In this document: piece after piece, positions 41,701 through 44,700 of the stretch | Layout: each line of letters starts with the position of its first letter | How positions within the stretch are numbered: position 1 is the first letter of the stretch | Assembly: GCA_039818205.1 (NCBI GenBank) | Contig: JBCBUK010000003.1 | Coordinates: forward strand, 288,001-352,000 | Reading direction: 5' to 3' | Source of the DNA: Verrucomicrobiota bacterium | GTDB lineage: Bacteria > Verrucomicrobiota > Verrucomicrobiia > Opitutales > Cerasicoccaceae | Length of the DNA stretch: 64,000 bases | Position numbers: made by a program

Positions 41701-44700
41701 TGGGTGAGTTCGCACCGACGCGCACCTTCAAGGGTCACCAGCCGTCCTCCAAGAAATAACCCGTTTCGCTCATCTTAACCATGATCCGTTTCCTTAAACA
41801 AGCGCTCTTGATTTCCGGTCTTTTGACTGGCGGGTCGCTTGTAGCCGAGGAAAGCGAGGCCCGCTTCGACCTGCGTTTTATTACGTCAGACTTCGAAGGT
41901 AAATGGGCCGAGATCGAGGTTGAGGAAGAGCGTCCGGTTGAAACCGTCAATCCCGGCTTTCCAACCAAAGCCCCCGCTGAGGTGGTTGTGGTTGAGGATT
42001 TGAATCCGGCCGAGTTTGCGATCCTCCGCGAGGCCGCCCAGTTGCGGACCGAAGTGCCGGAGTTTGCTAATAGCAGTATTTATCCATCCGGTGAGGCCGT
42101 TGTCTTTGGTGTCACCGAAAACAAGGCCGCCGACATTGTCATTCTCGACAATGGCCTCGATCAAGGTTTCCGCGTTGGGATGCTCTGTGAGATCACCCGC
42201 GAGGACACCGTCGTCGGAACCATTATTTTAGTTGCCGTTGAAGCTGACCGCTCCGCCGGCCTCATCGTTAACCTTCAGCCAGGCCGCAAAATTGTTTTCG
42301 GCGACCTGGCCCGCATTAAGACCGTTCAATTTTCCTAACTAAGTAGATACCATGGAAGTCTTGGCTCTCACCAAATACGCGCGTATGTCGCCAATAAAGG
42401 TTCGTGAAGTCGCCCGCGAAATTCAGGGCCTTCCCGCCAATGAAGCGATGGACCTTTTAAAGTTCATCCCGCGCAAGTCCGCACGCCTCTTGTCTAAGAC
42501 GCTCGCTAGCGCCATTGCTAACGCGGAGAACAACCACAACCTTTCATCCGACGATCTCGTGATCAAGAGCGCGATCATCGAAGAGGGCCCAGCCTTCCGC
42601 CGCTTCCAACCGGTTGCTCGTGGTTCCGCTCACCCCCTTCGTAAACGCACTAGCCACATTCGCATCATCCTCACCGACGAGGTGAAGGAGCCAGCAGCTT
42701 AACCCTTTAAAACACGCACTTAAATATGGGACAGAAAGTAAATCCTAAAGGCTTCCGCCTCGCCGTCCGTCGTGACTGGGACAGCCGTTGGTTCGCCGAC
42801 AAGAAGCAATTCCCTGAGTTCATTGCTGAGGACAACAGTATCCGCACCTTCCTGAATGAGCGCCTGCGCTTTGCCTCCGTGCCAAAGATCTACATCGAGC
42901 GCGCCGGCCAGCGTGTCCGCGTCAAGATCTACACCGCTCGTCCAGGTATCGTCATTGGTCGTAAGGGTGCAGAATTGGACAAGCTCAAGGCTGACCTTTC
43001 CAAGCTCGTTAAGCGCGAAGTCCTCCTCGACATCGCGGAAGTCAAGAAGCCAGACCTCGTTGCCCAGCTCGTCGCCGAGAACGTAGCACTGCAACTTGAG
43101 CGTCGTATTTCTTTCCGCCGTGCGATGAAGAAGGCCGTCCAGACCACTATGCAGATGGGTGCTGACGGTATTCGCGTCCAGTGCGCTGGTCGTCTTGGTG
43201 GTGCGGAAATCGCCCGGACCGAACAACAGCGTCAGGGTCGTGTGCCTCTACACACATTGCGCGAAAACATCGACTATGGTTTCGCTGAAGCACGCACCCT
43301 TTATGGGATCATCGGCATCAAGTGCTGGATCTGTAATTCTGACCCGGAAGAAGGCCTGTAAGCCCTCGCAACGTTAATCTTTAAAGACTTAGAACAATGG
43401 CAAAACTTCTACCAGCCAAGACCAAGTACCGCAAGGTGCACAAGGGCCGTATCCGTGGACGCGCCAAGGGTTGTGACACGCTCGCATTTGGTGAGTTCGG
43501 CTTGCAAGCTCTGGGCCGTGGTCGCTTGACCGCCGCTCAACTCGAAGCCGCTCGTGTTACCATCAACCGTTACCTTAAGCGCCGCGGTAAAGTTTGGATC
43601 CGTGTTTTCCCTCACAAGCCAGTGACCAAGAAGCCTCAAGAAACCCGTCAGGGTAAAGGTAAGGGGCCCGTTGAGTACTGGTGTGCGATCGTTAAGCCCG
43701 GCACGATGCTCTTCGAAGTATCGGGTTGTGGTGCTCAAGCCGCTCGCGAAGCGATGCGCCGCGCCGATGGCAAGCTGCCTTTCCGTTGCCGCTTTGTTAG
43801 CCGCGAAGAACTCGAACAATACTAATTAAGAAATCCGCAATTTTGCGCCGATACCTTTAGACCGCGATGAAAGCCAAAGACATCCGTGAACTTTCCCCCG
43901 AGGAACTCAACAAGAAGCTCCGCGACACCCGCGATGAGCTCGTAAATCTCCGTGTGCGTAAGCAGGTCGGCCAAGTGGAAAATCCGTCCCAACTACGCTC
44001 CCTCCGCCGTGACATAGCCCGCATCGAAACGATCCTTAATCAAAAGGAAGCGGCTACTGCCTAACGAACGAATGAGCCGGTGCTAGTTGCTGGCGAATCA
44101 AACAATTAAAAAGAAATGTCCGAAACCGAAACACAGAGCAAGGCTCGCAGCAGCGACCGTAAGGACCTGGTTGGTGTTGTCACCAGCCGCACGGGAGACA
44201 AGTCGATCAAGGTAACCTTTTTCTTCAAGACCCCGCACCCTCTTTACAAGAAAGAGATTAAGCGTAAGACCGTAGTTCACGCCCACGACGAAAAGAACGA
44301 GTGCGGTGTTGGCGACAAGGTCGAGATCATGGAAACCCGCCCCTTGAGCAAGCTCAAGCGCTGGCGTGTTGTGAAAATCCTTCATAAGGCACCGATTGTC
44401 GGCTAGCGCCGAGCGGAAGCCGCTTTAACCACTTTTTAAAGGGAACCCGTTCCAATGATTCAGCCCGAAAGCAGATTACAAGTTGCCGATAACACCGGCG
44501 CAAAAGAAGTGCTCATGATTCGCCGTCTTGGCCAAGCCAAGGTAACCGCCTCGGTTGGTGACGTCATCGTTTGCACTGTAAAGGAGAGCTCACCCGAAGC
44601 CGCCGTTAAGAAAGGCACCGTCGTTAAGGCGGTAGTCGTTCGCACCAAGGCTCCAATCCGCCGCGCCGACGGCAGCTACCTCCGTTTTGACAAGAACGCC

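Follow-up and report, generated by a model that had tools for sequence, protein, structure and literature searches.

The window, a stretch of 64,000 nucleotides from a Verrucomicrobiota bacterium of the order Opitutales, carries the str-S10-spc-alpha gene run. Within this run rpsS (41490..41759, plus strand; S19 by PF00203, E 2e-36, and TIGR01050) and rplV (42352..42702, plus strand; L22 by PF00237, E 1e-35, and TIGR01044) are separated by an open reading frame on the same strand at 41781..42338, here called X, which encodes a predicted exported protein of 185 amino acids. The spacers are 21 bp from the rpsS stop to X and 13 bp from X to the rplV start. No terminator-like or promoter-like sites were found on the plus strand at rpsS-X-rplV, and an Rfam scan of the 64-kb window gave no match. 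The codon adaptation of X, 0.695, lies within the 0.68-0.78 spanned by the ribosomal genes; long ORFs have a median of 0.557, and X is at the 98th percentile of 2204 such ORFs, some of which are not genes. The reading frame, its codon use and homologues in the same slot identify X as a real gene between rpsS and rplV, in agreement with an earlier note on this DNA.

Some other features of the window deserve mention. There is no room for rpmD (L30) between rpsE and rplO (48195-48249), and secY is followed by map and rpsM (50419-51304), with no adk, infA or rpmJ in the ORF list of the window. A 77-aa ORF 3' of rplQ (54781-55014) has an N-terminal hydrophobic stretch, a CxxC...CxxC zinc-ribbon-like motif and only weak Pfam matches.

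Residues 1-22 of X (41781..41846, plus strand) form a putative Sec signal peptide, judged by eye. Its features, a basic N-terminus, a short hydrophobic stretch and an end of small residues, recur by eye in nearly all homologues, which upholds the signal-peptide N-terminus described earlier. A lipobox-like motif occurs in one of 59 X homologues, and a 19-residue hydropathy of at least 2.3, used as a measure of a membrane anchor, is reached by 1 of 59 X homologues versus 13 of 19 copies of the barrel paralogue Y. An acidic, poorly conserved linker follows in residues 23-91 (41847..42053, plus strand), as seen in alignments, and residues 101-185 (42081..42335, plus strand) make up a six-stranded beta-barrel, or beta-roll, defined by alignments, a structure model and fold matches. 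The conserved barrel residues are G125, G129, G133, M134, R140, G174 and D175. Homologues from the same order mostly consist of signal peptide and domain in 111-130 aa, the linker being missing in most, and those of other orders have a length of about 230-340 aa with a helical stalk in the place of the linker. A model of this long form has helices at residues 7-74, 82-120 and 126-143 and is helical up to the barrel.

The absence of a family name, also noted earlier, was borne out by Pfam and NCBIfam, in which no family exceeded the cut-off for X. Among named relatives the nearest come from Cerasicoccus species (70-72% identity) and are annotated as hypothetical proteins, and a search of the ESM Atlas returned only unnamed Verrucomicrobiota clusters with scores below 0.9. 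Nothing significant was found in a sequence-profile search of the PDB, where TsaP came first with E 0.35.

The barrel, about 85 residues in six strands, is modelled with a pLDDT of 92. Its best structural match is residues 288-377 of 8z5n (Z 10.4, rmsd 2.1, 75 aligned), and Foldseek ranks 3w1e first (E 3.4e-3). The earlier assignment to the C-terminal domain of FlgT thus stands, and the name FlgT is backed by the title of 3w1e. The next matches are V-/F-ATPase N-domains (Z 9.3-10.0), MreC (Z 8.6) and TsaP (Z 6.8). For the long form the match to FlgT-C is Z 11.8 (rmsd 1.8, 75 aligned) and the following row has Z 10.1. Over the comparisons made, MreC scores Z 8.5-8.9, TsaP (3jc8_Ta) has middling scores of 6.8 with the short form and 7.3 with the long form, and EF-Tu, IF2 and Gar1-like barrels lie at Z 6-7.8. 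With a profile of the X barrel, 4996 cluster representatives are matched at E 0.001. Of these, 20 longer or repeated ones were scanned; most have weak FlgT_C or MreC matches, and in one the barrel is joined to a secretin N-domain. Two loci, both in Akkermansiaceae, came from a single long-form query, and the predicted complex of three long-form copies scored 0.01, which speaks neither for nor against self-association. The barrel is a widespread envelope module and the fold alone gives no function. Nor does the likeness to FlgT, because the fold is that of a superfamily in which ATPase N-domains come within 1 Z for the short form and which also takes in MreC, TsaP and Y, so the caution that the barrel is common was justified.

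Y, which has no family name, is encoded on another contig of the same genome (C7:203272-204102) and has a membrane anchor, a long coiled coil and a barrel. It lies between pgi and rsmI in the same order and in varied places elsewhere, often as tandem pairs. The barrels of X and Y are homologous (hhalign probability 99.3), and in a quick tree one branch (SH-aLRT 93, not starred) parts 59 X from 19 Y barrels, with X grouped roughly by taxon.

All 30 loci found by homology read rpsS-X-rplV, which agrees with the position given earlier. Such loci are blind to empty slots, and the slot was therefore gauged instead from the positions of S19 and L22. An even draw of 150 genomes of the class was searched, of which five lacked S19 and/or L22 and 145 were usable. 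The gap between rpsS and rplV is at least 350 bp in 101 of these, 65 with a barrel match inside the gap and 36 resting on gap length, and such a gap is missing in the other 44. Twenty-six families were all-present, 21 all-absent and one mixed. Adjacent rpsS and rplV are found in roughly 30% of the genomes of the class and roughly 45% of the families sampled, and the earlier claim that X is "fixed" does not hold. Three genomes without X (G265, G040 and G383) have rpsS-rplV spacers of 230-340 bp with no barrel match, possibly eroded remnants.

A further 48 genomes from other classes were hand-picked and enriched for non-matches and thus give no prevalence; nine are intact with X, 22 are intact without X and 17 are split between rpsS and rplV. 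X stands before rplV in 12 of the 17 split operons, usually as the first gene, these cases including one gap of 434 bp, one frameshifted copy and two loci near contig ends. Hence rplV is the constant link of X and is kept where the operon is split. The split operons break exactly between rpsS and X or rplV, and topA lies 5' of X in two. In G389, a transposase-rich genome whose best match to PilM is a GspL-like gene of type II secretion, X is frameshifted (L037:4043-4797), with the signal-peptide part and the barrel part in different frames, through decay or sequencing error.

Another 30 genomes were collected by a 16S motif, most of them assigned by record title to Planctomycetota, Omnitrophota and other phyla, Chlamydiota being outside the sample. 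The genes rpsS and rplV are adjacent in 27 of them, split in two and cut by a contig end in one, and there was no barrel match near rplV in the 29 usable genomes, mostly of other phyla. No X-type copy was seen elsewhere in genomes without X; the matches read there were Y. The distribution suggests one gain in the ancestor of the phylum, linkage to rplV and repeated loss. X is best explained as an ancient, vertically inherited Verrucomicrobiota gene that is limited to this phylum among the phyla sampled.

Expression can be followed in Akkermansia, where the slot is filled in 17 of 17 sampled genomes. The tag between S19 (Amuc_0300) and L22 (Amuc_0298) is Amuc_0299, listed as "uncharacterized", and it is equated with X by position, not by sequence comparison. 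Five Akkermansia copies of X gave dN/dS values of 0.06-0.17 over 10 pairs; X is under purifying selection. In PMC11480725 the log2 change from mid-log to the end of growth is 2.07 for Amuc_0299 and 2.59 and 2.05 for its neighbours. The protein is present in 14 of 14 samples of that dataset, with iBAQ medians 35-fold below L22, 55-fold below S19, 6.7-fold below PilQ and 4.8-fold below BamA, and with deficits ranging over 25-79 times for L22, 4-17 times for PilQ and 3-8 fold for BamA. Over the 14 samples its level correlates with S19 (Spearman 0.90) and with PilQ (0.62), and at the end of growth it drops more than BamA or Amuc_1100. In PMC6538878 Amuc_0299 rises 2.0-fold versus 7.4-fold for rpsS and 11.4-fold for rplV, so that the coupling of X to its ribosomal neighbours is not always tight. 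It is not listed in the supplements of PMC4960237 (a filtered list) and PMC13055324. The data show that in Akkermansia the slot gene is co-transcribed with its ribosomal neighbours and that its protein is made in small amounts.

What is new here is that the distribution of X tends to follow, in a nested manner, that of PilM of the MUL2-type pilus/secretin cluster and that of Amuc_1102 homologues. A strong PilM match is present in 100 of the 101 class genomes with X, the exception being 85% complete, and X is missing in 24 of the 25 with no or weak PilM (E above 1e-5). PilM is kept in 20 of 44 class genomes without X. Among genomes of at most 2.5 Mb PilM is found in 23 of 23 with X versus 2 of 22 without, and genome size is thus not the cause of the association, because small genomes with X keep PilM and small genomes without X mostly do not.

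The prediction was noted before a held-out test on 80 further genomes, of which 68 had a verified slot, seven unverified ones being left out. With four divergent copies that were recovered counted in, long PilMN occurs in 30 of 32 genomes with X and 27 of 36 without (p 0.049, kinship ignored); when five genomes without X that were verified later are added, PilM is kept in 32 of 41 without X and p becomes 0.099, kinship again ignored. About eight lineages lacking PilMN also lack X, some of them nested in one another. Three genomes have X and no PilMN: two are fragmented assemblies and the third is G389 with its frameshifted X. The Pfam PilM model missed the divergent PilMN of G332, G387, G367 and G287, which a second query, applied to just 15 genomes, picked up, and other calls of missing PilM may therefore be misses too. 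PilMN branches are much longer in G367 and G287, which lack X, than in sisters with X. The partner families profiled were FlgH, MreC, secretin, PilM and Amuc_1102, so that a better-matching partner is possible; the secretin profile matches 140 of 150 genomes and MreC 80 of 80, and both are uninformative.

In the genome studied here the pil cluster (C3:75407-82583) has five genes: a homologue of Amuc_1102, a PilM-PilN fusion, two unannotated genes at the places of PilO and PilP and a secretin of 926 aa with a TPR-like N-terminus. The first gene is homologous across the phylum, and its profile matches Amuc_1102 (PDB 7DSZ, E 7e-43). An Amuc_1102 homologue precedes pilMN in 18 of 20 clusters from genomes with X versus 5 of 20 from genomes without, the clusters having been chosen by the analyst. 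A whole-genome search for Amuc_1102, made with no positive control, gave no match in four genomes without X and a weak match in a fifth; it also gave none in five genomes with X picked as exceptions, including G020 (100% complete) and G193, again with no positive control. Several families without X keep pilMN-O-P-Q without the Amuc_1102 gene before it, and in three an apparent NAD-dependent epimerase gene is found there. In none of the loci read does X adjoin the pil cluster.

According to bioRxiv 10.1101/2020.05.29.123786, FlgT-C-like domains of TsaP form a belt round PilQ, and TsaP is dispensable for twitching. Our tentative reading, which we regard as possible although short of probable, is that X may serve a MUL2-type machine in the periplasm as a dispensable accessory or assembly factor similar to TsaP, dosed by growth rate; a beta-roll that is dispensable, predicted to be exported and lost in a pattern nested with that of a PilQ system would suit a role of this kind. 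X would be exported by Sec, cleaved and released as a soluble periplasmic protein, and its beta-roll, like the domains of TsaP and FlgT-C, might help, without being essential, in docking to or assembling a machine that spans the envelope. The likeliest machine would be the MUL2-type PilMN/PilO/PilP/PilQ cluster with Amuc_1102. The S10 transcript would tie the supply of X to growth rate, weak translation or turnover would hold it far below ribosomal stoichiometry, and lineages that lose or simplify the machine would lose X. That X is the missing sixth part of a MUL2-type glycan-foraging pilus/secretin machine, placed in S10 since the phylum ancestor so that assembly is set by ribosome synthesis, is a rather doubtful proposition.

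Several observations are contrary to a MUL2 role. Amuc_0299 is missing from the membrane dataset that PMC5332112 obtained with sucrose gradients and that does list PilQ, Amuc_1100 and even L22, its level is well below that of PilQ, and it is not encoded in the cluster. A deficit of this size against PilQ means that X is not a 1:1 belt. Protein levels track S19 more than PilQ, many genomes without X keep PilM, and the held-out association is marginal. Y is present in a family (f11) in which secretin is missing in 10 of 11 genomes, so that a secretin is not needed for the barrel to work. These points would suit a loose or transient partner in the periplasm, but not a stoichiometric belt.

It is somewhat unlikely that X is instead a general envelope-growth scaffold that works with Y, with MreC and the elongasome or with BAM and is expressed together with ribosomes as envelope synthesis scales with growth rate, the shared loss with pil then being parallel streamlining. 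The long form with its stalk and barrel resembles half of MreC, the barrel is homologous to that of Y, and the fall at the end of growth and the modest distance from BamA in the Akkermansia proteome would agree with such a role. However, MreC occurs regardless of X and Y persists where X is lost, so that neither explains the losses of X, and the contrast in PilM between small genomes with and without X also counts against this reading. A frozen accident, in which X was inserted once in the phylum ancestor, has a job that touches neither ribosomes nor growth rate nor pili and stays because the junction is costly to break, appears unlikely. Loss in nearly half of the families with no gene replacing X is in its favour, as are the low protein level relative to L22 and the weak response in one RNA-seq set; yet X keeps its place before rplV in most of the broken operons, no X-type copy was seen elsewhere in genomes with an empty slot, and the losses of X are nested with the pil cluster.

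The place of X in a transcript cluster that bears secY (48902-50419 in the same gene run) might also be explained if X worked on the periplasmic side of SecYEG as a PpiD/YfgM-like helper in the export of proteins. The predicted export of X and its relation to growth suit this, but X lacks the membrane anchor that is common in Y, its loss is patchy and no PpiD/YfgM-like chaperone is among the fold matches listed, which makes the explanation very unlikely. A remnant of FlgT, of the flagellar T-ring, or a cytoplasmic ribosome-associated barrel protein would account for the top fold match and for the likeness to EF-Tu, IF2 and Gar1-like barrels. It is hardly credible, given the conserved signal peptide, the lack of a FlgT N or M domain and the presence of FlgH in 5 of 32 genomes with X and 12 of 47 without. 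No FlgH or Flg_bb_rod match was found in the genome studied here (99.97% complete), which confirms the lack of flagellar genes reported earlier; X is not flagellar.

X is a real and expressed passenger gene that is limited to its phylum and whose product belongs to a known fold superfamily, and the MUL2 link is one testable lead. Many Verrucomicrobia including Akkermansia carry X before rplV; X tends to occur together with a pilus-like machine for sugar foraging and may help to assemble it. No report of the gene or of an insertion in S10 was found in a literature search, part of the Akkermansia literature being outside its reach, and Amuc_0299, B2UMT5 and AMUC_RS01705 appear in no main text within the literature searched. 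Here a gene for an exported protein interrupts a junction that is among the most stable in bacterial genomes, and it is characteristic of much of one phylum. If the MUL2 link is true, Amuc_0299 is a new, testable part of the mucin-foraging machine of Akkermansia, a much-studied gut symbiont, and an envelope machine is wired to growth rate via the ribosomal operon. If it is false, X nonetheless stands for a family that is real and expressed but has no name, and it can serve as a taxonomic marker.

Comparisons with known systems show both likeness and difference. The MUL2 locus of Akkermansia (Amuc_1098-1102), undetected in Methylacidiphilales according to PMC13174399, corresponds to the five-gene cluster of the genome studied here and has a distribution nested with that of X; X is encoded elsewhere, and it is not named in the passages on MUL2 that were consulted. 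The C-terminal domain of FlgT (PF16538; 3w1e, 8z5n) shares with X the six-stranded beta-roll, as its best structural match, and export, which is predicted for X. Six of 31 members of the X family score weakly against PF16538, below the curated cut-off (best E 0.001); the genome studied here has no match at E 0.1. FlgT has N and M domains, whereas X has a signal peptide and a linker or helices ahead of the barrel.

TsaP has FlgT-C-like beta-rolls, is periplasmic and is dispensable; X tends to follow a pilus/secretin cluster, with exceptions and with a marginal association in the held-out set. TsaP differs in having a LysM domain, which is not among the 25 Pfam families listed for 31 X members, and two barrels, whereas X has one barrel, a helical stalk in most members and a sub-stoichiometric level. 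MreC (PF04085) resembles X in having a coiled coil followed by a related barrel, but it has two barrels and a membrane anchor, whereas X has one barrel, a putative cleavable signal and no PF04085 match; a separate true mreC is present in the same genome (C8:131269).

Ribosomal operons carry known non-ribosomal passenger genes, namely secY, adk, map, infA and rpoA, which are co-transcribed with ribosomal protein genes. X resembles these in its strand, its short spacers, the lack of a terminator and, in Akkermansia, transcription with its neighbours, from which one dataset departs. Unlike them, X encodes an exported protein of no family, lies inside S10 at the rpsS-rplV junction and is restricted to one phylum among those sampled.
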